Shown: positions 1-63,523, numbered from the stretch's first letter. The stretch: 64,000 nt of DNA from Candidatus Woesearchaeota archaeon (GCA_964471255.1 CAYYFB010000002.1:106283-170282), one strand, 5' to 3'. Notes: generated from the sequence alone by a model not told the origin. Numbers and translations are program-made.

Positions 1-853
1 TTCTTGATGCACCAATACTTCTCAATAACCCGATTATTCTAAATCTTTCAAAAACACTTGTGTAAATTGAATTCATAACTCCTATGCTTCCTACCACAAG
101 AGAAATCGATGCTGTTGCCAAGAAAAATATCTGAACAAGAATTTTTATCTTACTTACACTCTTTAAAAGAGTCTCTCCAGTTACTATTCTGAAATCTTCT
201 TTTCCCCTCCTTTTTTTGAGATACTCACGTAATCCTTCTGAAACAATTTCTGGATCTTTCTTTGTTTTTACTAAAACAAAAGAATATCCAGATTTTCCAA
301 AAAGTTCATTATAAGCGCTCTCCAGAATTACAACTGAAGAATCATCAAATTGGCTGCCAGTCCCTTCTAAGATTCCCACTACTTTGAACTTTTCTCCAGC
401 TATTTCTATGGTTTTTCCTACTTCAGCATCAAAAATTTTCTTAGCTACCTTACCTAAGACACATTCATGTCCTTTTTTCAAATACCTCCCATCCGCAATC
501 CTATATCCCGTATCTTCAAACATTTCTTTTACTTTCCTTTTCCCTATCCCATAAATGAGGATAAGTTCTCCATCTTTCATTATTCTTCCAGCCTTAATTG
601 GAAGAGCTAATTTAACATCTTTATATTTCTCTATTTGAGTTATATCTTTCTCAGAGAATCCAGAAAGGGACATGGGAACTACAAGGAGTTTGTTTGTTCC
701 TAAAGAAGAAATTGCTTCTTCCACCCCAGCAAATACTCCTTTGCCTATTGAAAAAAGAGTGAAAATCGAAAATGATCCTATAATGATCCCAAGGCAGGAA
801 AGAAATGATCTTAGTTTTCTATTAAGGATGTTCTTAATAACAAACCATATCAT
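1..853 (-). CDS. ABC transporter permease, FtsX/MacB-like (3' end runs off the window)
   Basis: Not in the ORF track because there is no stop in the window. My translation from the ATG at 853-851 gives MIWFVIKNILNRKLRSFLSCLGIIIGSFSIF...VMNSIYTSVFERFRIIGLLRSIGASR: an N-terminal TM helix, an extracytoplasmic domain and the start of an FtsX helix bundle. ATGA overlap with the stop of ORF 850..2070. Same strand and operon as the ABC ATPase. Confidence 0.7.
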   Translation of the reverse strand, partial: MIWFVIKNILNRKLRSFLSCLGIIIGSFSIFTLFSIGKGVFAGVEEAISSLGTNKLLVVPMSLSGFSEKDITQIEKYKDVKLALPIKAGRIMKDGELILIYGIGKRKVKEMFEDTGYRIADGRYLKKGHECVLGKVAKKIFDAEVGKTIEIAGEKFKVVGILEGTGSQFDDSSVVILESAYNELFGKSGYSFVLVKTKKDPEIVSEGLREYLKKRRGKEDFRIVTGETLLKSVSKIKILVQIFFLATASISLVVGSIGVMNSIYTSVFERFRIIGLLRSIGASR

Positions 854-2070
854 ACTATTCTTCCAATTACCAATCCGATTGCGAAAATGATGACAGGGAT
901 CAAGTACTTCCAAATTTCTACTTCTTTCTGCCATTTAGGTTCTGGAAGGGACACTTCAATCGATTTCCACTCTTCTCCATCGAAAAAGTAGAGTTTTCCT
1001 TTTCCTCCAGAATCTAGCTCAATAGATTCATAATCTTTTGAATAAATTTCCCCTATAAAGTAAGTCTGATTATTCAATAACAAATGAACTGATTCTGCCT
1101 TTTTATCACCTTTATTGAAGACTATAAATTTTATTTTCTTTCTTTTCCAATCGAAAGAATATCCGTAGGATATGTTTGCTTTTTTTCTAATTTTTAAATA
1201 GAAATACCCAGTGTCTATTTCTTTCCATACACCTCTTTCTTCTTTCTCCAGTTTATACCCCAATTTCAAAGTATCCATATCAGGATCTAGGATTTTATAT
1301 GAGAATTCTGGAGCGGGGCCTAGTTCACAGTTCTTATTTAATTCAACTTCTTCTTCAGGGGTGAGACACAATCTACATCTATCGCATATTGAAAATTGAA
1401 GTTTGCCTTCCTTTTGAATCTCCTCCTGGAGTATAAGTATACTCTCTTTGTTTTCTGGCTTTAATGGAAAGATTAAAGTATAGTTCATTGCTTTAGCTTC
1501 TCCTTCATTCTCAAACAAAGCTAAAATCTTCAGAATTTGAGTATCTTCCCCTTTGCCATATATTTTTATTTTAACAGCATCTCCATCACTACACACAACG
1601 TTTTCTCCGACAAATTCCCCATAAACACAGACTCTATCCCCTAAATAGTCAAAGCTTATTGTTATTTCGTTTATCTTCCCCTTTGTTAGGTAAAGAGGAT
1701 AAATGTTCTTTATTCTTGGGAGTTTAAATGGAATGATCAGAGCGTCCAGAATTTGCTCTTTATTTCCCTCAATTTTTATCTTCATCTTTGCTGGCTTCTC
1801 ACACAAGTTTTTCCCTCTTACTAAAACAGAAATTGTATTATTTGCAGAAACCCATCCCAAATCTATTTTGTCTTCTTCAAGTTTAATACAGGAAGGAGCA
1901 TCTATTTTTATTTCGAGATCTTCCCCATTAAGCTCCCATAATTTCAGCTCATATGTGAAAGACTTATTCACTTCAAGGAATACTTTTGGCTCATAGAAGA
2001 TTACACTTACCATGGAAAATACAACTGGAGCAAGAAGGTGGATGAGAAGAAGTGCTTTTAGGAATTTCAT
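850..2070 (-). CDS. Secreted, C-terminally membrane-anchored beta-rich protein of unknown function, within the ABC operon
   Basis: 406-aa ORF with an N-terminal signal-like segment ([19 protein letters not shown]) and a C-terminal TM helix (YLIPVIIFAIGLVIGRIV). It overlaps both neighbours by 4 nt. Confidence 0.6.
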   Translation of the reverse strand: MKFLKALLLIHLLAPVVFSMVSVIFYEPKVFLEVNKSFTYELKLWELNGEDLEIKIDAPSCIKLEEDKIDLGWVSANNTISVLVRGKNLCEKPAKMKIKIEGNKEQILDALIIPFKLPRIKNIYPLYLTKGKINEITISFDYLGDRVCVYGEFVGENVVCSDGDAVKIKIYGKGEDTQILKILALFENEGEAKAMNYTLIFPLKPENKESILILQEEIQKEGKLQFSICDRCRLCLTPEEEVELNKNCELGPAPEFSYKILDPDMDTLKLGYKLEKEERGVWKEIDTGYFYLKIRKKANISYGYSFDWKRKKIKFIVFNKGDKKAESVHLLLNNQTYFIGEIYSKDYESIELDSGGKGKLYFFDGEEWKSIEVSLPEPKWQKEVEIWKYLIPVIIFAIGLVIGRIV

Positions 2071-2777
2071 ACCACAATCCTACCGTCCTTCATTTTTATA
2101 ATCCTTTCTGCCGAAGTAGCAACAGAGTTATCATGCGTAACAACTACGATTGTTTTACCAGATTTATAAAGCTTTTTGAATATTCTTAATATCTTCTCCC
2201 CAGTTTTTGAGTCCAAATTGCCTGTGGGCTCATCTGCGAGTATTATTTCTGGATCATTAGCAAGAGCTCTTGCTATTGCTACTCTTTGTTGTTCTCCCCC
2301 AGATAGTTGAGTAGGAAATTTATTAAGATGTTTCTCTAAGCCTACACTTTCTAATAATTTAACTGCTTTCTTTCTAGCACTTCTAAGAGGTATTCCCCTA
2401 ATTGTTATTGGAAGGGCAACATTATCAAGAACCGTTAAGTAGGGAATTAGAAGAAACTGTTGAAAAATAAATCCTATTTTCTCCCTTCTAATTCTGTCTT
2501 TATCGTGCTCCAGAAGAAGGCTACAGTCTTTTCCAAAAAGAAATATTTTCCCTCGGTCAGGAGATTCTAATAATCCAATAATTCTTAATAATGTGGATTT
2601 GCCTGCTCCAGAAGGCCCCATTATGGCTACAAATTCATTTCTCTCTATCTGAAGAGTAACACCAGCAAGTGCAATTGTTTTACCATATATTTTCCAGACA
2701 TTTCTTAGATCAACCAAAATTTCTTTTTCCATCATTTTTTCTTTTCCTTTCTTTGTTAATATATTCTTATCACTCAT
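2067..2777 (-). CDS. ABC transporter ATP-binding protein (MacB/LolD-like)
   Basis: Walker [10 protein letters not shown], signature [15 protein letters not shown], Walker [13 protein letters not shown]-loop VVTHD. The true start may be the internal MMEKE. Confidence 0.9.
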
Positions 2778-2933
2778 AAGTAACAGAAATATAAAAGATA
2801 AGAAGAAAAAGAATCATAGATAAAACAAGGACGGATGAAAAAGAAATTATTAAGAAAGAACTTTTCATCTACACAATAGCAGAAAGAAATTTCTAGAAAT
2901 TTTCTGCGTATATCCACTGACAATGCCTCTTGT

Positions 2934-3281
2934 CTAACAAGTTAGATGAATTGCTAAAGCGGCTTTTTTCCCTTCTTCTATTAGGTTATTATACTCCTTT
3001 ACTGCTTCCTTACTATCCTTTACTATAACTTCAATTCCCCTTTCTTTAAAATAAGAGATAACATCCTTGTCTACTTTCATAATCCCATAATATCCAGTCC
3101 CAATTACAAGAATTTCAAATTTCTTTTCTTTTAGCCACTTCAGGTCATCTAAGGATAATCTGTGTCCTTCCTTTCTCCACCATTTTTCCAGTATTTCATC
3201 TCCACAGATAATAATATCGTTCTTAAACATCCTTTCTCCAATTTTTATCCTTCCAAACTCATATTCCTCAACTCTTTGCAT
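2934..3281 (-). CDS. Mth938-like (DUF498) domain protein
   Basis: MQRVEEYEFGRIKIGERMFKNDIIICGD...FEILVIGTGYYGIMKV resembles the Mth938 fold family. I trimmed the start to the internal Met to remove the overlap with the divergent GATase gene. Confidence 0.55.
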   Translation of the reverse strand: MQRVEEYEFGRIKIGERMFKNDIIICGDEILEKWWRKEGHRLSLDDLKWLKEKKFEILVIGTGYYGIMKVDKDVISYFKERGIEVIVKDSKEAVKEYNNLIEEGKKAALAIHLTC

Positions 3282-3291
3282 AATCCCAATT

Positions 3292-3846
3292 ATGGAGGTA
3301 TTAATCATAAACAATTACAAGGGAAAAATAGGACTGAAGCGCACCAGAAAAATAAAAGAGTTGTTTCTTAAATGTGGGTTTAGAGATTTTAAGATTCTAA
3401 ATTTTGAAAAGGTAAGGGAAGAACATATAAAAAGAAGCGAGCTCGTGGTATTGTCTGGATATGAGTCCGGATGCATAGGGGATTACCTAGAACTTTCAAA
3501 GAAAGTAAGAAAGGCAAAAAGAGCAATCGGGATTTGTGGTGGAATGTATATAATTGCCTTAGCATTCCATGTGCTTCCGAAAAGTCTTCCTAAAAGAAGG
3601 AAGGGGTTTAATAAAATTGAATTTAAGAAAAGAACATTCCTGGTTTACCATAATCACATTCTCTATCTGCCTGAGGAGAGGTTAAAAAAGTTTGAAATAC
3701 TTGGCCGCTCCAGATTCCTTAGAATGAAAATCCCAGAAATAATTAGAAAAAATAAATTTATTGGCCTTCAGTTTCATCCAGAGCTTTCTGGAGCGGACGG
3801 ATTAAATATAATTAAAGAAATTTTATTTTATTACTTGAAAACTTAA
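3292..3846 (+). CDS. Class I glutamine amidotransferase-like protein
   Basis: Nucleophile elbow GICGGMYIIA and C-terminal LQFHPE motif typical of GATase1 (GuaA-N/PabA-like). Confidence 0.7.
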   Translation: MEVLIINNYKGKIGLKRTRKIKELFLKCGFRDFKILNFEKVREEHIKRSELVVLSGYESGCIGDYLELSKKVRKAKRAIGICGGMYIIALAFHVLPKSLPKRRKGFNKIEFKKRTFLVYHNHILYLPEERLKKFEILGRSRFLRMKIPEIIRKNKFIGLQFHPELSGADGLNIIKEILFYYLKT

Positions 3847-4142
3847 TAACTCCTGGCAAGTTGTTGGATCTATCCTTCTGTATGAATCTGTGAAGTTTAA
3901 GATCAATGTGATTATTAATCTAGTTACAAGTGTGTTGTTTAGTGGTAGGTATTTATTCTCTAATTATTCCGAATTGCCAAAAATCTATGTCTTCCTTTCT
4001 TTATATCTCTCTCATATTAAATCCTTTCTCAATGATTATGCCATCCACAAATACTTTCCATTTACTTTGCTCTTTCCAAACTTGTATCCCTTAATTCCTA
4101 TAATTCTAGAAGGACTAAATTTTCTTTAGCTTCTATGTTACC

Positions 4143-4370
4143 ATGAAGAGGTCCCTCAAAATTCTTTCTGTAATCTTACTTTGGATAGCTGTTATTTGCC
4201 TCTGGATTCTTTATTTACTTATTACTATATCTCAGCTAGGGTTAAAATACCTCATTAATACCGTGCTTGACTGGAGAGTTTGGGTAAAAATCATTGTTGC
4301 TGTTTTAATAATCGACTTGACAATTGAACTTTGTTCTAGAGTTGCAAAAAGACTCTTAAAAAGGAAATAA
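4143..4370 (+). CDS. Small membrane protein (two predicted TM helices)
   Basis: 75-aa ORF with hydrophobic stretches ILSVILLWIAVICLWILYLLITI and VKIIVAVLIIDLTIELC. No homolog recognised. Confidence 0.35.
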   Translation: MKRSLKILSVILLWIAVICLWILYLLITISQLGLKYLINTVLDWRVWVKIIVAVLIIDLTIELCSRVAKRLLKRK

Positions 4371-4398
4371 ATATATCTCAAAGCACTAACTTATTCAT

Positions 4399-4535
4399 GC
4401 CGCCGTAGCTCAGCGGTAGAGCACCAGGCTCATATCCAGGGATGAGGGATTTGAGCGCTGACCATGATGAAATGCTTGGGGAGAGCACTGAAGGGAGAAA
4501 CCTGGGGGTCCGGGGTTCGAATCCCCGCGGCGGCA
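4399..4535 (+). tRNA. tRNA with CAT anticodon (elongator Met or Ile2) and a roughly 65-nt intron after position 37
   Basis: Acceptor GCCGCCG/CGGCGGC. D arm TAGCTCAGCGGTAGAGCA. Anticodon stem CCAGG(4424-4428)/CCTGG(4501-4505), with loop CTCATA + A. T arm CGGGGTTCGAATCCCCG. Discriminator A. G1-C72 argues against an initiator. Confidence 0.9.
4435..4499 (+). ncRNA. Box C/D sRNA-like module inside the tRNA(CAT) intron
   Basis: Box C-like GGGATGA 4439-4445, 12-nt guide GGGATTTGAGCG 4446-4457, D-prime CTGA 4458-4461, C-prime ATGATGA 4464-4470, guide ending ...TTGGGGAGAGCA, D CTGA 4488-4491. Confidence 0.6.
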
Positions 4536-4561
4536 GTTCTTTACTTCTAGACGGAACTTCT

Positions 4562-4999
4562 CTACTTGCATTCAATTTCTTCTAAAAATTCTTTTGGTCT
4601 CAAGATTTTAAGTCTATGCTCTTTTACTTCAAGTTCTTTATTTTTGTCTCGTAAATCTAGTAAGTCCTTATCCAAAGTTATCAGGTACTCTGCTTTGATC
4701 TCATAGGCTACATCTAGGAATTTATTATCTTTAGGGTCCCTGCAAAGGGAAAAATGTTCCCTTGGAAAAATAAGTACAGATTTTTCTTCTATAGCTTTGT
4801 AAAATTCGAATACTAATGAAAAAGGAAAATAATTAGTTCCTTTTAAAATTAGAGTCTTAAAGTATTCTATCAAGATCTCTTGACTGATGAAATTTATAAT
4901 CTTGTTTTCAAATAATTTCTTTATTACTTTGAAAGAATCTCCCGATTTAGATATTAAAGCTGCCAAGATTACAGAAGTGTTTAAAACCACTTTTATCAT
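4562..4999 (-). CDS. PIN-domain protein (VapC-like toxin, PIN_3-type)
   Basis: MIKVVLNTSVILAALIS...ILIEY...DPKDNKFLDVA...ITLDKDL. The first conserved acidic residue is Asn (LNTSV rather than LDTNV). 4-nt overlap with the upstream RHH gene. Confidence 0.65.
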   Translation of the reverse strand: MIKVVLNTSVILAALISKSGDSFKVIKKLFENKIINFISQEILIEYFKTLILKGTNYFPFSLVFEFYKAIEEKSVLIFPREHFSLCRDPKDNKFLDVAYEIKAEYLITLDKDLLDLRDKNKELEVKEHRLKILRPKEFLEEIECK

Positions 5000-5253
5000 T
5001 TTCTTATAGCTTTTATCATTTCAACAACTTCTTTGTCACTTACCAGCTTATTTTCTTTCTTTAATTTTTCTCTTATTAGATTAATCTCTTCTAGCAACTT
5101 TTTGTAGTACTCTTCTTTTTTCAAATCGCTAATCATCTTTAGTATGGAAAATCTTATTAATTCAGACTTATCTTTGAATATGCCAAGCTTTATAATGTCC
5201 TCTATTTGCTTCTCAAGGCCTTCAGGGATTCTTATTGTTAGAACTTTCTCCAT
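4996..5253 (-). CDS. Ribbon-helix-helix (CopG-like) antitoxin candidate
   Basis: MEKVLTIRIPEGLEKQIEDIIKLGIFKDKSELIRFSILKMI is an RHH-like N-terminus. Translationally coupled to the PIN gene. Start trimmed to the internal Met. Confidence 0.55.
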   Translation of the reverse strand: MEKVLTIRIPEGLEKQIEDIIKLGIFKDKSELIRFSILKMISDLKKEEYYKKLLEEINLIREKLKKENKLVSDKEVVEMIKAIRK

Positions 5254-5334
5254 ATTACACGTGTAATACATCAGTATTTAAGGCTTTTACACTTTCTTAG
5301 AGATTCATCCCAAATTTCGATATAGTAAATAGGA

Positions 5335-5985
5335 TTATCGAAAGCCCACTACGAAATATTCTTCCTTTCTGAAAACACTATCTTTATAGACCTCTGCTTT
5401 GTACCCTTTTTGTTCAGTATATTTCTTTAGAGCCTCTATCCAATCTTCATATTTCTCAAATTTCTTCCCTATCAATTTTTCAGCAATAGCTCTATCCACA
5501 CAACATGGAACAATCACTATTTTTTCAAAGCCCAAATTGGAGCCAATATCTATAGCTCTGAGAGAAAGGGACTTACAACAGTGCAAAGCAACAACTATTT
5601 TCTCATAATTTTGAAATTTCTCGATAATAGGTTTGAGTTCTTCCTCAAGCTCACCATCAAATAAATCTTTTCTTATATAGAAAAACCTTTTTGTTTTCTC
5701 AAAATTCTTAACAAGAGAAACAGGGGCTCTAATATCTACAGCAATTGAGACTCCATTGTTGTAAAGAACATTATAGAGGCTTATTAGTGCTCTAGACCCG
5801 GAACAAAGCTCAAGGACAAGAGCTTTTCTCCCTTTAATTTCATTCCAGAAAACTAGCAAAGTCTCGGTTATTTCCTTAAAAGGATCCAATGATTTTTTAG
5901 CTATTTTAATCAATATATCAGATTGTTTTCTTCTTAGAAACCATTTCCACATTTGATAAATTTTTTCCATAAAGAGGTCAAACAA
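5335..5985 (-). CDS. Hypothetical protein, possible SAM-dependent methyltransferase fold
   Basis: 216-aa ORF with a weak motif-I-like VLELCSGSRAL. The ORF-track start is a TTG and the true start is uncertain. Confidence 0.35.
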   Translation of the reverse strand: MFDLFMEKIYQMWKWFLRRKQSDILIKIAKKSLDPFKEITETLLVFWNEIKGRKALVLELCSGSRALISLYNVLYNNGVSIAVDIRAPVSLVKNFEKTKRFFYIRKDLFDGELEEELKPIIEKFQNYEKIVVALHCCKSLSLRAIDIGSNLGFEKIVIVPCCVDRAIAEKLIGKKFEKYEDWIEALKKYTEQKGYKAEVYKDSVFRKEEYFVVGFR

Positions 5986-6262
5986 ATGAAGGTTATTATT
6001 CTCTTCAAGATAGACATATACTAATACCGTATTTAAGCTTGTTTGAGGATCTATAATAAAGAAGATATTCCTTATTACTTTCGAATAACTTTTTATAATT
6101 CTAGCAATATCTTTGCTAGCTAATAGCTTATTCTTTTTTGATCTTCCTCTTATGGTATTAATTTCCCTTAATAATTCTCTGTAATCCTTTTCTTTTCAGG
6201 TATTGCTTACTGTTTTTAGTTTGAAGAACCAATTACCTTTCTTTAAAATCTTTCTAAGCAAT

Positions 6263-7012: not shown

Positions 7013-7372
7013 ATGGACCTAAGCAAGAAAGCTAAAATGTTTGAAGAGGAGGCCTATGAAGCGTTCGAAAAGGGAAGATATACATTTACAATTCTTTTTG
7101 CAGAACAAAGCATCCAGCTTTATATAAAACATATTTTGTTTAAAAATTTCGGAGATTTTCCAAAAATACATAATTTAAGAGTTCTTTTTAAGGGACTAAA
7201 TAAGATAAGAGATTTAAGCGACTTTATTGAGGAAAATTCAGCAATTATCGATTTGCTTATGACTGCATATATTGAAGCAAGATATACAAGCATGGAATAT
7301 AGCAAGGTAAGTGCAGAGCTAGCCCTTAAATTTCTAGAAAAATTTAAGGAGAAAATAAAGGATTTGCTATGA
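7013..7372 (+). CDS. HEPN domain protein (HEPN-MNT pair 1)
   Basis: 119 aa, all-helical, with AEQSIQLYIKHIL...HNL...YIEARYT typical of small archaeal HEPN proteins. 4-nt overlap with the MNT gene. Confidence 0.75.
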   Translation: MDLSKKAKMFEEEAYEAFEKGRYTFTILFAEQSIQLYIKHILFKNFGDFPKIHNLRVLFKGLNKIRDLSDFIEENSAIIDLLMTAYIEARYTSMEYSKVSAELALKFLEKFKEKIKDLL

Positions 7373-7725
7373 AATATAGCGTTATAGACCTCCAAAGAGA
7401 GCTAATAGAATCCTACCAGAAATATAGGAAGGACTACTTGAAATATGCTAGAAAAATAAAGGAAATTGCTGAAGAATTTTTTAAGGAAAATCTATTAAAG
7501 GTAATAGTATTTGGATCAACAGTAAAAGGAAATTTTAAGCCCTGGAGTGACATAGATGTTGCAATAATTTTAAAAGAGAGAGTAAATGAGATTGAGATTG
7601 CAAAGTTTATAGGAAAAATAAACAAATTATTTGGTATTCATCCATTTGAAATTCATGTAATTCCCCTAAAGTTTTGGGAGGAATGGTATTCGAAATTTAT
7701 TAAGAAGGATTGGGTTGAGGTTTAG
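7369..7725 (+). CDS. Minimal nucleotidyltransferase (MNT, pair 1)
   Basis: VIVFGSTVKGNFKPWSDIDVAIIL matches the GS-x(n)-DxD pol-beta-type NTase motif. Confidence 0.8.
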   Translation: MKYSVIDLQRELIESYQKYRKDYLKYARKIKEIAEEFFKENLLKVIVFGSTVKGNFKPWSDIDVAIILKERVNEIEIAKFIGKINKLFGIHPFEIHVIPLKFWEEWYSKFIKKDWVEV

Positions 7726-43126: not shown

Positions 43127-43474
43127 TTAAAGCCTAATTTCCCTTATATCTTTTCCTACCATTTTTGAATAAAATGAATTGAATTGTTCTGGAGTGGCCA
43201 GATGAAATTCAAATGGTTTTGCAAAATATTTTTCTCCAAGTTCCAAATATACCTTTCTCCTTAATTCCTTGTCCTTGAATTTATCCGAAACAATTAGGAC
43301 ATCTATATCGCTTAAGCCTATGGAATAATCTCCTCTAACTATGCTTCCAAACAGAAAAATTCTAAATTCCTTTATCCCATTCTTTTTTAAAATCTTTTTA
43401 ACTCCTCTTAAATATTTCAAAGGATTTTCAAAGTATTTCTTATTTTCTTCATATCTTGCTCTTAAGATTTCCAT
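43127..43474 (-). CDS. Minimal nucleotidyltransferase (MNT, pair 2)
   Basis: IFLFGSIVRGDYSIGLSDIDVLIV. Confidence 0.8.
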   Translation of the reverse strand: MEILRARYEENKKYFENPLKYLRGVKKILKKNGIKEFRIFLFGSIVRGDYSIGLSDIDVLIVSDKFKDKELRRKVYLELGEKYFAKPFEFHLATPEQFNSFYSKMVGKDIREIRL

Positions 43475-43842
43475 AACAATCCAATCAATTTTTGATATAA
43501 TTCCTTAGCTTTCTCAACGCTTTCTTTATCAAAAGTTTCTGGGAGGTATCTGCTTGAAATATATGCGCGTTCCAGTTCTGCAATTGTTCTTTTATACTGA
43601 CTAACTACTTCTTTTATATCTCTCTTCTTCATGACTTTTGATAGATCATGCAGAAGTTTTGAGAGTTTATGAGTTTTCTCGAAAAATCCTGTAAGATCAA
43701 GGAGTTTTGCCTTAACTATGAGCTGAATTGCCTGTTCTAAACAGAACATTGCCATTTCATATTGTTTATCCTTTTCGCTTTTCTTAGCTAGCTCAAAGAA
43801 ATATTTCCCCCGCTCCAGAAGAAGCTTTATTTCTTCTCTCAT
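43462..43842 (-). CDS. HEPN domain protein (pair 2)
   Basis: FCLEQAIQLIVKAKL...HKLSKLL...YISSRYLP. Overlaps the MNT gene by 13 nt and the aspS stop by 4 nt. Confidence 0.75.
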   Translation of the reverse strand: MREEIKLLLERGKYFFELAKKSEKDKQYEMAMFCLEQAIQLIVKAKLLDLTGFFEKTHKLSKLLHDLSKVMKKRDIKEVVSQYKRTIAELERAYISSRYLPETFDKESVEKAKELYQKLIGLLWKS

Positions 43843-48020: not shown

Positions 48021-48611
48021 ATGGTGAAGGTTTTTGCAAGGATATTTATTTTTGATAAAAAGGCAATAGAGGAAAATAAAAGAGACATGAAGAGGTGGTT
48101 TAAGGTTATAGAAGAGGATGTAAAATTTGAAATAAAAGAAAACATTCTTGAGGAGGTATACAGTGAACTTCCTAAAGAAGTTAGGAAAATAATAGAGCAA
48201 GAAAAGATAAAAATCTATATTTGCCCACCAATAAGGGAAATTTGCAGGAATTGGGTCTGTGGGAGATGTAAAGGCAAGAAGGTTTTTCTAGAAATAGGAG
48301 TTTGGACTAAAGAAAGAATTCTTTGGAAGTTGTTACATGAAGTTTGCCATGTTTTGCAAGGAAAAGCTGATAAGGATAGATTATCAAGAGAGATTGTTGC
48401 TGGCCATTTTGCTGACCTATTTAGCCTAAGAGTTGTTCGGAAGGTTGAGGAAGAATATAAAGTAAAGATTGGAAGGAATGAAAAAGAAAAGATACTGCAT
48501 TGCTTGCTTAATCTTAGCTTAAATAATGTAAGGGAAATCACAGAAAAAATAAGTAAAATACTTGGAAAGAAAGATATAATTATGATGAGTCCTGCAGCAT
48601 CTGAGAAATGA
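48021..48611 (+). CDS. Hypothetical protein with an HExxH motif (possible zinc metallopeptidase)
   Basis: LLHEVCHVLQG in a 196-aa ORF. Weak. Confidence 0.4.
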   Translation: MVKVFARIFIFDKKAIEENKRDMKRWFKVIEEDVKFEIKENILEEVYSELPKEVRKIIEQEKIKIYICPPIREICRNWVCGRCKGKKVFLEIGVWTKERILWKLLHEVCHVLQGKADKDRLSREIVAGHFADLFSLRVVRKVEEEYKVKIGRNEKEKILHCLLNLSLNNVREITEKISKILGKKDIIMMSPAASEK

Positions 48612-48630
48612 TGAAGCTTAACGGTGCTGA
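48582..48630 (+). ncRNA. Box C/D sRNA candidate
   Basis: C ATGATGA 48582-48588, 12-nt guide GTCCTGCAGCAT, D-prime CTGA 48601-48604, 3-nt linker, C-prime ATGATGA 48608-48614, 12-nt guide AGCTTAACGGTG, D CTGA 48627-48630. Box order and spacing are canonical for archaea. Confidence 0.75.
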
Positions 48631-50219
48631 GAATATTCAATACATGCTTTTGCAAATGCTACAAAAATTGGATGAGGGTTTTCCGGCCTTGATTTAAACT
48701 CAGGATGGAATTGAACCCCCAAGAAGAAGGGATGGTTCCCTAACTCTATTGCCTCAACTCTTTTTCCATCTTCGCTCCAAGCAGAAAAAACTAGACCATT
48801 TTCTCTTAGGATGTCAAAATATTTTGGATTTACTTCCCATCTATGCCTGTGTCTTTCATAAACAAGCTCTTTTTGGTATATTTTATGTAAAAGTGTATTA
48901 GGAACTATTCTTACCGGCATCGACCCTAATCTCATTGTTCCTCCTAGTTTGTCAATATCCCTTTGCTCGGGCATAAGATCAACTACTGGATGAGGAGTCT
49001 CTGGATCAATTTCTGTGGTATTTGCCCGCTCCATACCGCAAACGTTCCTTGCATATTCTATAGCCATTAATTGAAGACCCCAGCACAAGCCGAGGACGGG
49101 TATTTTATTCTTCCTGCAGTACTCGATAAATCTCATCTTTCCTTCCGCAGCCCTTTTTCCAAATCCCCCTGGAATTATGCAACCATCATAGGGAAATTCC
49201 TTTATTTCTTTGTTCTCATAATCTGTGGCTTCTATCAGCGTAATGTCTGGCTTATATCCAAGTTTTAATGTGGTATGTTTTAGAGCCTCAATGATACTAA
49301 GATAAGCATCTGGAACACGAGTATACTTCCCAATTATCGCAATTTTTACGCTCCTTTTACAATTGCTCCATAGCTTACAGAAAGATATAAAATTATCAAG
49401 TTTCCCATCTTTTCTTTTTTCTAAATCAAGTATCTGAAGAATGGGCTCCAATATTCCTTGTCTACTTAGAACAATTGGAACTTTATAGTAAATGTCATAT
49501 GTAGGGACCTGAAAAACATTCTTTATTCCGCACCTAACCCTTATTTTCTCTATAATATATGGAGGAAGAATGATATCAGACCTTACAACCAATATATCAG
49601 GATTTAGACCCAAACTTCTAATTTGGGAAACACTTCTCTGGAGAGGCCTAGTCTTTGGTTCTTTAAGGAACGGAGGAACAAAAACGTACCCCACATGAAT
49701 TATGCAAACTCTATAATCTTCACTATTCTTCATCCTTCTTGCTGCTTCAATCATATACCAATTTTCCCAATCTCCAACACTTCCTCCTACTTCTACAAGA
49801 AATATTTCAAAATTTTTTGAGACTTCCTGTAAATGATCAATCACCCATCTTACGACATGAGGAATAAACTGCACTGTTTTTCCAAGATACTCCCCCTTTC
49901 TTTCCCTTTCAAGTATGCTCAGTAAAACCTTTCCTCCAGTCAAATAAGAAATTTTACCAGAGAGATTTTCATTTAACATTCTTTCATAGTGTCCTAGGTC
50001 CTCATCACACTCGGTCCCATCATCAAGGACATAAACCTCCCCATGTTCATAAGGATTAAGAGTCCCGGCATCTACATTCAAATATCCGTCAAACTTCATT
50101 ACTCCGATCTTAAAACCTGCTTCCTTTAAGATTCTTGCTATGCTTGCTGTTACGGTCCCCTTTCCTACTCCAGAAATTACCCCTCCAGTTACAAATATAA
50201 ACCTCTGGAGAGGGGGCAT
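48618..50219 (-). CDS. pyrG: CTP synthase
   Basis: FIFVTGGVISGVGKG N-terminus, GLCWGLQ GATase nucleophile, GVQFHPEF, 533 aa. Confidence 0.93.
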   Translation of the reverse strand: MPPLQRFIFVTGGVISGVGKGTVTASIARILKEAGFKIGVMKFDGYLNVDAGTLNPYEHGEVYVLDDGTECDEDLGHYERMLNENLSGKISYLTGGKVLLSILERERKGEYLGKTVQFIPHVVRWVIDHLQEVSKNFEIFLVEVGGSVGDWENWYMIEAARRMKNSEDYRVCIIHVGYVFVPPFLKEPKTRPLQRSVSQIRSLGLNPDILVVRSDIILPPYIIEKIRVRCGIKNVFQVPTYDIYYKVPIVLSRQGILEPILQILDLEKRKDGKLDNFISFCKLWSNCKRSVKIAIIGKYTRVPDAYLSIIEALKHTTLKLGYKPDITLIEATDYENKEIKEFPYDGCIIPGGFGKRAAEGKMRFIEYCRKNKIPVLGLCWGLQLMAIEYARNVCGMERANTTEIDPETPHPVVDLMPEQRDIDKLGGTMRLGSMPVRIVPNTLLHKIYQKELVYERHRHRWEVNPKYFDILRENGLVFSAWSEDGKRVEAIELGNHPFFLGVQFHPEFKSRPENPHPIFVAFAKACIEYSQHR

Positions 50220-52252: not shown

Positions 52253-53224
52253 TTAAAACTTGCTTTTCTTCCACAAAGGAGGATATCTACCTCTTTCCAT
52301 AATGACCCTCTCTATTTTGGCCACAATTCCTCTTTTTTTCTCGAGTATCTCTTGAGAATTCATAAGCGCTCTACCAAATCCAATTAATTCATTTTTCAGT
52401 GTCATTATAGCAACAAAATCATCGGGTTGTATATCTGAACTCAATTTAGCCACTCCAGGCGCTTTAAGAGACGCACCATGGCAGATTGCATCAACACAAG
52501 AGTCCAGTACCCATATCTTTTTAAGATGCTCCACTCCAGCCTCAATAGGTAATAATATTTTTCTTAAATATTTCTCATTTCCTGTTTCTTTCCACACCAT
52601 GAAAGCATCGGCGATATCTTGTAATATTACAGAATCCTCCTCGGAAAAAGGTCCTGATCTTATCCTTCTTAATTCCTGCATATGGGCTCTTGTCCCCATC
52701 TCCTTCCCCATGTCCCAAATCAATTTTCTAATATATACCCCTGCCTCACATTCTATCTCCAAAAGAACATCTCTCCCATCCACCTCCAATACTTTTATTT
52801 TGTATACCCATTTTCTCCTTGGCCTCCTTTTTACAGCTGACTTAAGTGGTGGAACCTGAATTATCGGGCCCTCAAATTTCTTGATTGTTTTAAAGAGTTT
52901 TTCTTCTTTAAAGTCTGAATGAACATGCATTAAAGCAACATAAGTCTTTCTTCCATAAAGAAAAGCTTGTAAGACCTTTGTCCCTTTATTTACTCCTACA
53001 GGCAATACTCCTGTAACTTTGGGATCTAAGGTTCCACCATGTCCTACTTTGTTAACCCCCAGAATTTTCTTTATCCAATAACAAACTTGGTGAGAGGTAG
53101 GTCCTCTTGGTTTATCTAAATTTATTAAGGAGCATTCTAGCAACTCAGAGATAGATCTCTCATATGGGTCTTTTCCCCATTCTGGATTTGTTTCGGCTTC
53201 TTTTTTTACCAATATTTCTGACAT
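52253..53224 (-). CDS. cbf5: H/ACA RNP pseudouridine synthase Cbf5 (TruB family with PUA domain)
   Basis: INLDKPRGPTSHQV, VGHGGTLDPKVTGVLPV, and a C-terminal PUA-like region. Confidence 0.9.
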   Translation of the reverse strand: MSEILVKKEAETNPEWGKDPYERSISELLECSLINLDKPRGPTSHQVCYWIKKILGVNKVGHGGTLDPKVTGVLPVGVNKGTKVLQAFLYGRKTYVALMHVHSDFKEEKLFKTIKKFEGPIIQVPPLKSAVKRRPRRKWVYKIKVLEVDGRDVLLEIECEAGVYIRKLIWDMGKEMGTRAHMQELRRIRSGPFSEEDSVILQDIADAFMVWKETGNEKYLRKILLPIEAGVEHLKKIWVLDSCVDAICHGASLKAPGVAKLSSDIQPDDFVAIMTLKNELIGFGRALMNSQEILEKKRGIVAKIERVIMERGRYPPLWKKSKF

Positions 53225-59587: not shown

Positions 59588-59764
59588 AACAGAAGCCCAG
59601 TTTTCTGGTATTGGTTTTTTTAAATGATGCTCCTACAGATACTATTACTTTACTTGCTTTACTGGGCCAACCTGGTTTTTCTTTCATTACCTACAAATCC
59701 AGGTTGTGCCAGAGTCCAAGCGAGTCTAGAGTAATTGTTTAAAAAGGTGAAGGAATTTTTTGGT

Positions 59765-62620
59765 ATGAATAAATCAATGGGGGAATTTCTGGATAAGGTT
59801 AGGAATATAGAGGCAAAGTGGAGCGAGATATGGATTAAGGAAAAAGAATTTGAGGCTGATGCCAAGCCTGGAGCACCAAAATATTTTATAACAGTCCCCT
59901 ATCCCTATGTTTCTGGGCCACCACACATTGGACATGGAAGATCTTATGTTGTGGGGGATGTAATAGCAAGATATAAGAGACTTAAGGGGTACCATGTCCT
60001 ATATCCCATTGCTTTTCATGTAAGTGGGCTACCTATTGCTTCTATAGCTGATGGAATCTCGAGAGGAGATAAAGGGATGTTTGATAGGATGATGTTCTAT
60101 GTACTTCCGTTTGAGAAGGATGAAGAAAAAGCCAAAGAGATTATAGAAAGCTTTAAGGATCCAATGAATGTTGCTCTATATTTCATAAAAATATGGGAAA
60201 AAGATCTTAAGAATTTTGGATTTTCTCTTGACTGGAGGAGAAAATTTCATACTGCAGAGCCAATTTATAATAAATTTGTTGAATGGCAGTATTATAAGCT
60301 TAAAGAGAAAGGAGTTTTGAAGAAAGGAGAATATTATGTCCTTTATTGTCTAATGCACAAACACCCAGCTGGAGAGGATGATATTCAGGACGGGGATGTT
60401 AACCCGGTAAAAAAAGTTGAATGGGTTGGAGTTAAGTTTAAATTCGAGGATGGATGGATAATAGCCGGAACTTTAAGGCCTGAGACAATCTTTGGGATAA
60501 CAAATGTATGGGCGAAGCCAGAAGCAAAGTACTGTAAAATTAAAGTTAATGAGGAAGTTTGGTATGTTTCCAGGGAGGCTGCGGAGAAGTTTTCATATCA
60601 ATTTGATAATGTTTCTATTCTAGAAGAAATAGATGGTTCTTACTTTATAGGGAAATGGTGTGTAGACCCACTAGGTAATAAACAAATAATACTTCCAGCA
60701 AGATTTATAGATCCAGACATAGGAACGGGCTTTGTTTATTCCGAACCATCCGATGCTCCAATAGATTGGGTAGCATTAATGGAATTGAAGGCCGCTCCAG
60801 AAAAAGTTAGGGAATTTGGAATAGATCCAAGAATATTAGAAAAAATAGAGCCAAAGAAGATTATTGATTTGCCTGGAGTGGAGGGACACCATAGCGAAGT
60901 TCTAATAAAGAAGTATAATGTAAAAGATCAATTGGACCCAAGATTAGAACAAATTTCTGAAGAGGCGTATAAGGAGCAATATTATAATGGAATAATGATT
61001 CCAGAAGGAGTAAAAGGGATGAAAGTATCTGAAGCTAAAGAATATGTAAAAGAGAAGCTATTGAGGGAAAATAAAGCAATAATTTTCTACGAAACATCAA
61101 GAAAAGCCGTCTGTAGAGCTAAGGGAAAAATAATTGTGGCTAAAGTAAAGGATCAATGGTTTATAGATTATTCTCCTGAATGGATTAAGGAACTAGGGAG
61201 GAAATGGTTAGATAAGAATATTGTTTATCCAGAGAAGTATAGGAAGCTATTTTATGATACAATTGATTGGTTAGAGAAAAGACCCTGCACCAGAACTAGG
61301 GGCCTTGGGACAAGGTTTCCATTTGACAAAAAATGGGTAATTGAATCCCTATCTGATTCTACCATCTATATGGCCTTTTATACCATTGCTCACTTAATCC
61401 GCTCCAGAAATATTGACCCATCTCAATTAATACCTGAAGTGTTTGACTATGTATTCCTGGGTAAGGGGGATGTTAAGGAAGTATCTAAAAGTTCAGGAAT
61501 ACCTGAAGAAACTCTAGAAGAGATGAGAAAGGAATTCCTATATTGGTATCCATTAGATCATAGGCATACTGGAGTGGCCCACATAACTAATCATCTTTCT
61601 TTCTTCATCTTACATCACTGCATCATATTCCCAGAAGAGTTGTGGCCAAAGCGGATTACTTTGCATGAAATGGTCTTAAGTGAAGGGGAAAAAATGTCAA
61701 AATCAAAAGGAAATGTGGTGCTACTTAAAGATATTGTAGAAAGGTATTCAATAGACCTTTATAGGCTATATGCAATAGGAACAGCAGATTTAGGGGCACC
61801 AATGGATTGGAGAGAAAGGGATGTTGCAGCATTAACAGGAAGACTACATAGATTTTTCCAAGTATGTGAAAAAGCAATTGCCGCTCCAGAAAGGGAGAAA
61901 GATAGGTTAGATGAGTGGCTCCTATCATCCTTTTATAAAAGATTGAAAGAAGCCTCCGCTCTAATAGAGTCTTTTAGGTTTAGGGAATATGTTCAAAGTC
62001 TATTTTATGGTGTATTAAGTGATATAAATAGATATTTATTGAGAAAAGGAACCGAAGATTATTATGGAGTAAAATTAATCCTTAAAGATTGGCTAATTTC
62101 CCTCTCTCCAGTCATTCCCCATATTTGTGAGGAATTTCTGGAGCGGATGGGAGAGAAAAGAATAAAAGATCAGAAATGGCCTGAGATTAGGGAAATAAAA
62201 GAAGAAATATTAAGAGAAGAAGAGTTCATTGAACAAGTGAAAGAGCAAGTAATAAAAATATGTTCTAGGCTTAAAAAACCGATTGAAGAGAAAGGAATAA
62301 AGGTTGTTAGGATAGTTATTCCAAAAGAAGAAAAGTACAAACTGTGGGAGGAAATAGAAAAAGTTTCTGAAAAAGACATTGGAAGAATTTTGGCTGAAAA
62401 AGGATTTTATGATCTAATAAGGCAAGCATTGAGGCAAAAAAGGGAAAAATTAATATGGTTTAACAGATCTAAGGAAAAAGAATTATTGGAGGATTCCATG
62501 AAATACTTTTCTTTCATATTTGGAGCACCATTTGAGCTAGTAATGGAGGAAGAAATACCTGAAGAAATTGCTAAAATTAGCGCTCCAGGTCAGCCAGCAA
62601 TTTTGGTTGAGTTTAAGTAA
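59765..62620 (+). CDS. leuS: Leucyl-tRNA synthetase, archaeal type
   Basis: PYPYVSGPPHIGHGRSY (HIGH), KMSKSKGN (KMSKS), a CP1 editing insertion, about 950 aa. Start moved to the first ATG (MNKSMGEFLDKVRNIEAKW); the track ORF begins at TTG 59735. Confidence 0.92.
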   Translation: MNKSMGEFLDKVRNIEAKWSEIWIKEKEFEADAKPGAPKYFITVPYPYVSGPPHIGHGRSYVVGDVIARYKRLKGYHVLYPIAFHVSGLPIASIADGISRGDKGMFDRMMFYVLPFEKDEEKAKEIIESFKDPMNVALYFIKIWEKDLKNFGFSLDWRRKFHTAEPIYNKFVEWQYYKLKEKGVLKKGEYYVLYCLMHKHPAGEDDIQDGDVNPVKKVEWVGVKFKFEDGWIIAGTLRPETIFGITNVWAKPEAKYCKIKVNEEVWYVSREAAEKFSYQFDNVSILEEIDGSYFIGKWCVDPLGNKQIILPARFIDPDIGTGFVYSEPSDAPIDWVALMELKAAPEKVREFGIDPRILEKIEPKKIIDLPGVEGHHSEVLIKKYNVKDQLDPRLEQISEEAYKEQYYNGIMIPEGVKGMKVSEAKEYVKEKLLRENKAIIFYETSRKAVCRAKGKIIVAKVKDQWFIDYSPEWIKELGRKWLDKNIVYPEKYRKLFYDTIDWLEKRPCTRTRGLGTRFPFDKKWVIESLSDSTIYMAFYTIAHLIRSRNIDPSQLIPEVFDYVFLGKGDVKEVSKSSGIPEETLEEMRKEFLYWYPLDHRHTGVAHITNHLSFFILHHCIIFPEELWPKRITLHEMVLSEGEKMSKSKGNVVLLKDIVERYSIDLYRLYAIGTADLGAPMDWRERDVAALTGRLHRFFQVCEKAIAAPEREKDRLDEWLLSSFYKRLKEASALIESFRFREYVQSLFYGVLSDINRYLLRKGTEDYYGVKLILKDWLISLSPVIPHICEEFLERMGEKRIKDQKWPEIREIKEEILREEEFIEQVKEQVIKICSRLKKPIEEKGIKVVRIVIPKEEKYKLWEEIEKVSEKDIGRILAEKGFYDLIRQALRQKREKLIWFNRSKEKELLEDSMKYFSFIFGAPFELVMEEEIPEEIAKISAPGQPAILVEFK

Positions 62621-63394: not shown

Positions 63395-63523
63395 GCCCCC
63401 GTAGCTCAGCCTGGAAGAGCACCGGCCTCCTAATGATAAGGGCAGCTCGGGCTGAATAATGATGAATAAACCACCGTTTGAGGAGAAAGCCGGGGGTCGC
63501 GGGTTCAAATCCCGCCGGGGGCA
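63395..63523 (+). tRNA. tRNA-Arg (CCT) with a roughly 55-nt intron after position 37
   Basis: GCCCCCG TA GCTCAGCCTGGAAGAGC A CCGGC CTCCTA [intron] A GCCGG GGGTC GCGGGTTCAAATCCCGC CGGGGGC A. Confidence 0.9.
63433..63487 (+). ncRNA. Box C/D sRNA-like module inside the tRNA-Arg(CCT) intron
   Basis: C-like ATGATAA 63433-63439, 12-nt guide GGGCAGCTCGGG, D-prime CTGA 63452-63455, linker ATA, C-prime ATGATGA 63459-63465, 12-nt guide ATAAACCACCGT, D-like TTGA 63478-63481. Confidence 0.6.

Follow-up and report, generated by a model that had tools for sequence, protein, structure and literature searches.

A complete box C/D RNA in the intron of an archaeal tRNA(CAU) gene: a predicted C34 guide with a possible second target at C56

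The intron-containing tRNA(CAU) gene

The DNA analysed here, referred to throughout as the window, is a stretch of 64,000 nucleotides from a Candidatus Woesearchaeota archaeon (GCA_964471255.1 CAYYFB010000002.1:106283-170282), which harbours close to its start a tRNA(CAU) gene interrupted by a 65-nt intron with the sequence of a box C/D RNA. The explanation for this intron that we hold with somewhat more belief than doubt is that it represents an unusually complete member of a family of tRNA-Met intron guides, the conserved target of which is C34. Rfam recognised positions 4399-4535 (+) as a tRNA at 60.2 bits with an insertion of 65-67 nt located 3′ of the anticodon; ARAGORN made no call for a tRNA gene at 4399-4535. 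The 3′ end of exon 1 reads CCAGG-CUCAUA, that is C32 U33 C34 A35 U36 A37, with C34 at 4431 and A37 at 4434, and exon 2 commences with A-CCUGG at 4500. The intron borders (Table 1) were assigned by reading the sequence and are accurate to about 1 nt. The G1:C72 pair together with the CCAGG/CCUGG anticodon stem indicates that the host tRNA is not an initiator. The splice site can be read as a relaxed bulge-helix-bulge in which C32-C34 pair with intron G61-G63 and A35 faces G60 as a mismatch, its central helix thus comprising three Watson-Crick pairs and an A.G mismatch, with the bulge AA/A; the homologous intron L041, described below, is alike in this respect. The Logan assembly of SRR7051321, which is independent, displays 100% identity across window positions 1-6070. 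A TATA-like A/T-rich element, AAUAAAUAUAU, is situated at 4366-4377, some 23-33 nt 5′ of the mature tRNA end, and its position, as read for this one gene, suggests that transcription starts at or near +1 to give a leaderless pre-tRNA as in Nanoarchaeum equitans.

Table 1. Coordinates of the host tRNA exons, the intron and the elements of the intronic box C/D RNA
Feature	Position in window	Strand	Description	Basis
tRNA(CAU) exon 1	4399-4434	+	acceptor, D arm, anticodon stem and loop to A37	Rfam and sequence reading
Intron	4435-4499	+	65 nt, canonical 37/38 site; whole intron is a box C/D RNA	sequence reading, C/D regular expression
Box C	4439-4445	+	GGGAUGA, U-to-G at position 2	sequence
D′ guide	4446-4457	+	GGGAUUUGAGCG, 12 nt; N+5 base is G4453	pairing tables, duplex energies
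Box D′	4458-4461	+	CUGA	sequence; invariant across all 11 family members
Linker	4462-4463	+	CC	sequence
Box C′	4464-4470	+	AUGAUGA; K-loop with D′ and the CC linker	sequence
D spacer	4471-4487	+	AAUGCUUGGGGAGAGCA, 17 nt; hairpin UGCUU (4473-4477) / GAGCA (4483-4487)	minimum-energy fold
Box D	4488-4491	+	CUGA	sequence; regular-expression match
Intron tail	4492-4499	+	AGGGAGAA	sequence
tRNA(CAU) exon 2	4500-4535	+	T-arm candidate target G53-C63 at 4515-4525, C56 at 4518	

Box C/D architecture of the intron

From its 5′ to its 3′ end the intron reads UCCAG, GGGAUGA, GGGAUUUGAGCG, CUGA, CC, AUGAUGA, AAUGCUUGGGGAGAGCA, CUGA and AGGGAGAA, which is the order of boxes that an earlier note on this DNA had described. 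The bases for the sheared pairs of a kink-turn (K-turn), G3-A4 and G-A, are present in the terminal C/D motif, and the GGGAUGA variant of box C is identical to that of the stable tRNA-Met intron of N. equitans. When the window was searched with a strict C/D regular expression (C, 10-14 nt, D′, loop, C′, 9-18 nt, D), just two matches were obtained in 64 kb, one being this intron and the other a stand-alone small RNA (sRNA) at 48582-48630. The intron scored below the Rfam gathering score for archaeal C/D families, the best being sR33 with 24.2 bits versus 37 (E = 0.006 in a local search); as the Rfam C/D families are species-specific guides, such a score is weak evidence against membership. In our reading the intron is a genuine box C/D methylation-guide RNA.

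The two spacers differ in character. The D′ spacer is exactly 12 nt, as compared to 17 nt for the D spacer, which contains a 5-bp hairpin, and archaeal C/D spacers are about 12 nt in length. The D spacer offered no pairing of more than 6 bp with the five tRNAs of the window, so that this guide, which the earlier note had also left unplaced, is best read from the predicted fold as a hairpin or an orphan spacer. A GC hairpin occupies the matching place in the N. equitans intron, and about 80% of the tRNA-targeting sRNAs of Pyrobaculum possess one orphan guide. The two ends of the excised intron can form a UCC/GGA helix bordered by A.G and G.A mismatches, and it is in this excised form that the terminal K-turn would arise.

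Complementarity of the D′ guide to the anticodon loop

In the host pre-tRNA, the complementarity of the D′ guide extends from G31 to A37 and onwards across the first three bases of the intron (UCC). The resulting duplex comprises nine Watson-Crick pairs, five and four to either side of a U.U mismatch at U36, with an energy of -14.2 kcal/mol, and places C34 opposite the fifth guide base upstream of box D′ (the N+5 position). When folding of the pre-tRNA was constrained to the cloverleaf, the prediction had the guide and the anticodon loop paired as a cis hairpin. The mismatch is due to U4451, which differs from the base found in the four closest homologous introns (of hydrothermal type); these four and N. 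equitans carry an A opposite U36. This single base weakens the C34 duplex and completes the T-arm duplex described below. Six marine homologues likewise have a U facing U36, located within the hairpin loop, and U4451 by itself is thus no proof of retargeting.

The C34 of tRNA-Leu(CAA) was considered as a trans target of a UUUGAG guide and dropped, no such tRNA being encoded in the window. In tRNA-Leu(CAA) G37 and A38 are expected, and these would mismatch a UUUGAG guide.

A guide and K-turn module conserved in homologous introns

A scan of metagenomes with a pattern composed of the GGCUCAUA anchor, a degenerate guide, CUGA and GAUGA yielded 17 loci, 10 of which are archaeal tRNA(CAU) genes with introns. 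The guide-CUGA-K-turn module was present in all ten of these introns and in the tRNA-Met intron of N. equitans, with GAUGA following CUGA at a distance of 4-10 nt in every member. Despite variable loops and spacers, C34 is opposite the fifth base (a G) upstream of CUGA in 11/11 sequences; this register was taken from register-anchored tables, as a MAFFT alignment of the hairpin region set L041 out of register.

The closest relatives, L034, L036, L040 and L041, constitute the hydrothermal-type group and have a tRNA resembling that of the window. Each forms 9-10 contiguous pairs with its own anticodon loop and intron start (-12.1 to -15.5 kcal/mol; loops of 3-6 nt), all of them Watson-Crick with the exception of one G.U in L034. 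The 5′ part of the guide covaries with the first bases of the intron, as UCC/GGA in the window and as UCU/AGA, AUC/GAU and AU/AU elsewhere, which indicates that the substrate is the unspliced pre-tRNA. In six marine introns (L033, L037, L043, L045, L047 and L048) the cis helix is shorter, G31-A35 pairing with UGAGC, and the stem-loops between CUGA and GAUGA covary (CCCGAAAGGG, GGCAUUAGCC, GGCUCAGGCC and others, with CCC...GGG versus GGC...GCC), the signature of a real K-turn. In the marine genes there also appears to be, upstream of the anticodon, a further intron, which contains UGAUGA. A homologue (36-50% identity) of a 323-aa protein of the window is encoded within a few kb of the tRNA-Met gene in L034, L036 and L040; the window gene for this protein (52253-53224, -) lies 48 kb from the tRNA-Met gene.

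Complementarity to the T arm was not conserved among the guides of the ten relatives. Their T-arm duplexes and that of N. equitans range from -3.4 to -8.3 kcal/mol, none of them useful (-4.5 to -7.7 kcal/mol for L034, L036, L040 and L041), and the window guide is an outlier for T-arm pairing among the 11 family members. The window copy is likewise alone in having a terminal C/D motif combined with a canonical 12-nt spacer, its relatives having a single K-turn, and the second motif suggests a lineage-specific trans-acting phase. In the literature searched, we found no description of the breadth of this C34-directed tRNA(CAU) intron module across environmental archaeal lineages.

Complementarity of the D′ guide to the T arm

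The same 12-nt guide is complementary to the host T arm at G53-C63, forming nine Watson-Crick pairs, two G.U pairs and one terminal mismatch with a duplex energy of -16.7 kcal/mol, and here it is C56 that occupies the N+5 position. The sequence GG-UUC(G/A)AAU-CCC is common to all five tRNAs of the window, each of which (5/5) pairs with the guide without interruption over the 11 positions G53-C63 and has C56 at N+5. The pairing patterns of tRNA-Gln and tRNA-Cys equal that of the host, while both tRNA-Arg genes (UCG and CCU), which carry UUCAAAU, form ten Watson-Crick pairs and one G.U at -17.0 kcal/mol. The earlier note had proposed C56 as the target on the strength of this pairing, and the extent of the match (11 of 12 positions with two wobbles), the better fit to the two tRNA-Arg and the register were all reproduced in our tables; the pairing with C56 is thus real, whereas the conserved target of the family, C34, had been missed.

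The T-arm match is not random. For a 12-mer of random sequence, the probability of pairing throughout the 11 positions of this register is about 8e-6, calculated as the product of per-base odds, and the frequency of a run of at least 11 pairs anywhere in the five tRNAs was 1.1% among random 12-mers and 2.1% among shuffled guides. The match is partly inherited, however, because the anticodon loop targeted by the guide family resembles the T loop. There are few differences between the string formed by the anticodon loop and intron start (G-C-U-C-A-U-A-U-C-C) and that of the T arm (G-U-U-C-R-A-A-U-C-C), so that the resemblance is to a degree built into the guide. A hypothetical perfect C34 guide, GGGAUAUGAGCG, would pair at -18.1 kcal/mol with the anticodon and at -12.6 kcal/mol with the T arm, as compared to -14.2 and -16.7 kcal/mol for the actual guide, and the latter is the best T-arm pairer among the 36 single-base mutants of the perfect C34 guide.

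Action of the guide on the T arm of its own host, as also envisaged in the earlier note, is topologically awkward. The unconstrained minimum-energy fold (-58.3 kcal/mol) does form the pairing between guide and T arm, with loss of both the anticodon stem and the T arm, and when this pairing and the cloverleaf were enforced together, folding was impossible without a pseudoknot. As the pairing is pseudoknotted with the anticodon stem, C56, if it is a target, would be a target in trans, which the pairings render plausible, although we regard it as tentative and on the doubtful side. As to the compatibility of splicing and guide structures, which the earlier note had listed as a check, the relaxed bulge-helix-bulge was found, while a conflict between the terminal K-turn and full cis pairing, discussed below, is probable.

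Relation to known guide RNAs

The nearest described counterpart of the window intron is the 66-nt intron found in elongator tRNA-Met of N. equitans, which was reported as a stable and abundant C/D-like RNA for which no target was predicted (Randau 2012, PMC3491384). The two have in common the host tRNA, a nearly equal length (66 versus 65 nt), the GGGAUGA variant, a near-identical core (GGGCUAUGAGCU-CUGA-CC as compared to GGGAUUUGAGCG-CUGA-CC) and a hairpin that separates the C-type box from the 3′ end. The N. equitans guide appears complementary to CUCAUA of the Met anticodon loop, which would place C34 at N+5. The N. equitans intron differs in possessing a single K-turn, its boxes being separated by a CCCGAAAGG loop, whereas the window intron has a terminal C/D and an internal C′/D′ motif; it also has an A opposite U36 where the window has U, and its match to the T arm is poor (-8.3 kcal/mol).

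The pre-tRNA-Trp intron guide directs 2′-O-methylation of C34 and U39 (Cm34 and Um39), is capable of acting in trans and is circularised upon excision (Clouet d'Orval 2001, Singh 2004). It resembles the window intron in being an intron of about 65 nt at 37/38 with full C/D and C′/D′ motifs and in being aimed at the wobble C34 of its host. It differs in that the tRNA is another one and that both of its guides are used (C34 and U39), whereas in the window intron this would apply to the D′ guide only, the D spacer being a hairpin. Cm34 of archaeal elongator tRNA-Met is itself a product of box C/D ribonucleoproteins (RNPs), with stand-alone guides in Pyrococcus and Haloferax; sR-tMet of Haloferax volcanii is reported to act on the intron-containing elongator pre-tRNA-Met (Joardar 2011). 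The window intron would share with sR-tMet and the Pyrococcus C34 guide the box C/D-guided formation of Cm34 in elongator tRNA-Met, but these are stand-alone genes acting in trans, whereas the window guide resides in the intron of its own target.

According to reviews, Cm56 is made by aTrm56 in most Archaea, while Pyrobaculum aerophilum, which lacks aTrm56, uses a C/D small ribonucleoprotein (sRNP), a precedent that the earlier note had cited and that is hereby confirmed. Genome contigs were scanned for D′ guides of the C56 type, resulting in 29 matches, mostly chance and in bacteria. The sole convincing archaeal match was located in a Vulcanisaeta metagenome-assembled genome (JAKMAE010000029.1, L013 2126-2178, -) and represents a stand-alone sRNA, GUGAUUG-GGGAUUCGAACA-CUGA-CCCUG-UGAUGA-AAUCGACCG-CUGA. 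Its 12-nt D′ guide, GGGAUUCGAACA, is the perfect complement of G53-C63 with C56 at N+5. In Rfam this sRNA comes closest to sR33, just as the window intron does, and we presume it to be the Cm56 guide of the Thermoproteales. A candidate in another archaeal metagenome-assembled genome, L006, was rejected as it lay in apparent coding sequence and had no flanking boxes, and the one match in a scan of viral contigs was rejected as chance. The window guide resembles the Vulcanisaeta guide in being a 12-nt D′ guide that starts with GGGAUU in the identical G53-C63 register, and this shared length, 5′ GGG and register make a C56 reading mechanically credible. The Thermoproteales guides differ in being stand-alone, in belonging to a lineage without aTrm56 and in matching perfectly by Watson-Crick pairs (GGGAUUCGAAC); the window guide, in contrast, is intronic, forms a G.U pair with U54 (in some tRNAs also with G57) and retains its complementarity to C34.

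Other box C/D RNAs, neighbouring genes and lineage

A second intron of the window, 55 nt in length (63433-63487), interrupts the gene for tRNA-Arg(CCU) at 63395-63523 (+) and displays a full C/D-like layout of AUGAUAA, 12 nt, CUGA, AUA, AUGAUGA, 12 nt, UUGA and GGAGAA. Its G6-to-A change in box C and C1-to-U change in box D are mutually compensatory, giving A:U for G:C, and it had weak Rfam C/D matches (sR1, E = 9e-4). Neither of its guides fits the host tRNA, the best tRNA match being to the anticodon stem of tRNA-Cys (9 bp, -19 kcal/mol, with G30 at N+5). In the literature searched, we came across no report of a tRNA-Arg intron that contains a box C/D RNA.

The stand-alone sRNA at 48579-48633 (+) is canonical, AUGAUGA-GUCCUGCAGCAU-CUGA-GAA-AUGAUGA-AGCUUAACGGUG-CUGA, and was matched by snoPyro_CD, the Pyrococcus C/D model, with 38.4 bits (E = 4e-7). 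It is positioned at a junction of convergent genes, where it overlaps the 3′ end of an open reading frame (ORF) at 48021-48611 and the stop end of a CTP synthase gene (48618-50219, -).

Directly downstream of the tRNA(CAU) gene, at 4562-5271 (-), lie a PIN-domain gene (PF13470) and a small upstream gene; this pair looks like a toxin-antitoxin system, the small gene having no family match, and on reading a similar two-gene pair is present at 7013-7725 (+). Logan gene calls identical to window 43127-43842 (-) have HEPN and nucleotidyltransferase matches. The leucyl-tRNA synthetase (59735-62620, +) has its best matches, at 51-55% identity, in Candidatus Njordarchaeales/Njordarchaeia, Thermoprotei and Desulfurococcales, and the neighbouring GATase has no homologue below E = 1e-5 except one 99% copy, which together point to a poorly sampled, deep-branching thermophilic archaeal lineage. 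This archaeon is uncultured and has a G+C content of 34-36%.

Discussion

The feature that recurs across this family is the register of the guide, and we suggest that the conserved function lies in the guidance, or at least the presentation, of C34 in the unspliced host. In the mechanism that we propose, the sequence 5′ of CUGA would pair with the host anticodon loop and the first bases of the intron, CUGA and the nearby GAUGA would form a K-turn or K-loop that may recruit L7Ae, Nop5 and fibrillarin, and C34, positioned opposite the fifth guide base, would be 2′-O-methylated before splicing. No genes for L7Ae, Nop5 or fibrillarin lie in the window. The window copy keeps this module despite the one U.U mismatch at U36, and with the addition of a second, terminal C/D motif the excised and probably circularised intron would become a complete double-motif sRNA capable of acting in trans. 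The one-base variant U4451, by conferring full complementarity to the T arm, may make of C56 a possible second, rather than primary, target.

A number of observations weigh against C34 as the target in this organism. Methylation of C34 by the intron is itself a prediction from sequence, and the host is taken to be an elongator tRNA-Met by analogy with its homologues, tRNA-Ile2 being the alternative. Guide targets were sought among tRNAs, and a ribosomal RNA (rRNA) target is conceivable for either guide. A credible archaeal guide-target duplex was defined by Lui et al. (2018) as at least nine continuous Watson-Crick pairs around N+5 to rRNA or tRNA, and the C34 duplex, with its five and four pairs, falls short of this strict rule, while nine continuous Watson-Crick pairs are formed with U55-C63 of both tRNA-Arg(UCG) and tRNA-Arg(CCU); T arms of the G57 type fall short of it also. 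The T-arm duplex is furthermore 2.5-2.8 kcal/mol stabler than that with C34. Finally, the 5′ box C is contained within the 9-nt loop of the cis hairpin, so that complete pairing in cis probably excludes the terminal C/D K-turn, and the extra motif has therefore to be explained otherwise, for instance by action in trans. Lui et al. (2018) have, for their part, extended the target prediction of a family to minority members with one mismatch.

These observations lend themselves to an alternative explanation, in which the guide has come to serve the T loop, by retargeting or co-option, and the excised intron, as an sRNP, methylates C56 of many tRNAs in trans, thereby replacing or backing up aTrm56 in the manner of the Thermoproteales guide. 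The uninterrupted 11-pair runs in all five window tRNAs at -16.7 to -17.0 kcal/mol, the nine-pair Watson-Crick stretch in tRNAs with UUCAAAU, which reaches the published threshold, the position of the guide as the T-arm outlier of its family and as the best of the single-base mutants, and the confinement to the window copy of complete C/D and C′/D′ motifs with a canonical spacer all favour it, as do the Vulcanisaeta sRNA with its identical 12-nt C56 register (GGGAUUCGAACA-CUGA) and the Cm56 guide of P. aerophilum. The guides in the tRNA-Arg(CCU) intron mismatch their own host, and intron sRNAs of this genome may accordingly act in trans. The T-arm match is, however, one base away from the ancestral C34 guide, and as the anticodon loop is intrinsically similar to the T loop (G-Y-U-C-R-N-A), it could have arisen by a substitution that was neutral or tolerated; the same U is present in the marine homologues, which are themselves devoid of a T-arm match. 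The guide moreover still fits the first three bases of the host intron, a fit needless for a pure T-loop guide, the G57-type tRNAs form two G.U pairs, one of which adjoins the target base, and cis action is made awkward by the pseudoknot with the anticodon stem. PF01994 (aTrm56) was not found among the 30 ORFs of the window, a search covering the window only and thus uninformative for the whole genome. On balance we consider this retargeting rather unlikely, yet deserving of attention. The history that it would entail, in which an intron guide for Cm34, ancestrally acting in cis, became in a deep-branching thermophile a pan-tRNA guide for Cm56 that acts in trans, by means of U4451 and a second C/D motif, possibly while still serving C34, is accordingly put forward as speculative.

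In most family members the single K-turn is accompanied by a "guide" that is permanently paired with the anticodon loop in a cis hairpin, and in Pyrobaculum conserved guide-target pairing is known without methylation (Lui et al. 2018), which would accord with a K-turn of structural purpose only, where the L7Ae-bound intron chaperones pre-tRNA folding or presents the bulge-helix-bulge and methylation does not occur. This we consider improbable in view of the exact N+5 spacing to C34 maintained in all 11 sequences, the known dependence of Cm34 in archaeal tRNA-Met on box C/D RNAs and the canonical double-motif architecture of the window copy. That the box-like motifs and complementarities are functionless chance features might be argued from Rfam matches below gathering scores and from CUGA being merely a 4-mer, yet it is very hard to reconcile with a module conserved in unrelated metagenomes and N. 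equitans, with a full C/D pattern occurring at two loci only in 64 kb and with the small chance of the T-arm register, and we give it scarcely any credence. Guidance of C34 by an unusually complete family member therefore remains the explanation that we prefer.

Intron-borne box C/D guides of Archaea have usually been presented as a curiosity of tRNA-Trp. A guide and K-turn module that appears aimed at C34 is now seen in several environmental lineages, unrelated to one another, within introns of their tRNA(CAU) genes, and the intron RNA of N. equitans, published without a target, gains in C34 one that can be tested. Guidance of C34 would also suggest one selective reason for the persistence of the tRNA-Met intron. 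If C34 alone is used, the locus would be an ordinary though nicely complete member of its family. That one base suffices to make the T loop, rather than the anticodon loop, the preferred partner illustrates how small the difference between two tRNA targets can be, and should C56 indeed be methylated, the intron would show by example how a guide is retargeted and how a protein enzyme is replaced by an RNA guide. One guide would then have two physiological targets, and guide-dependent Cm56 would have arisen a second time, independently, outside the Thermoproteales.

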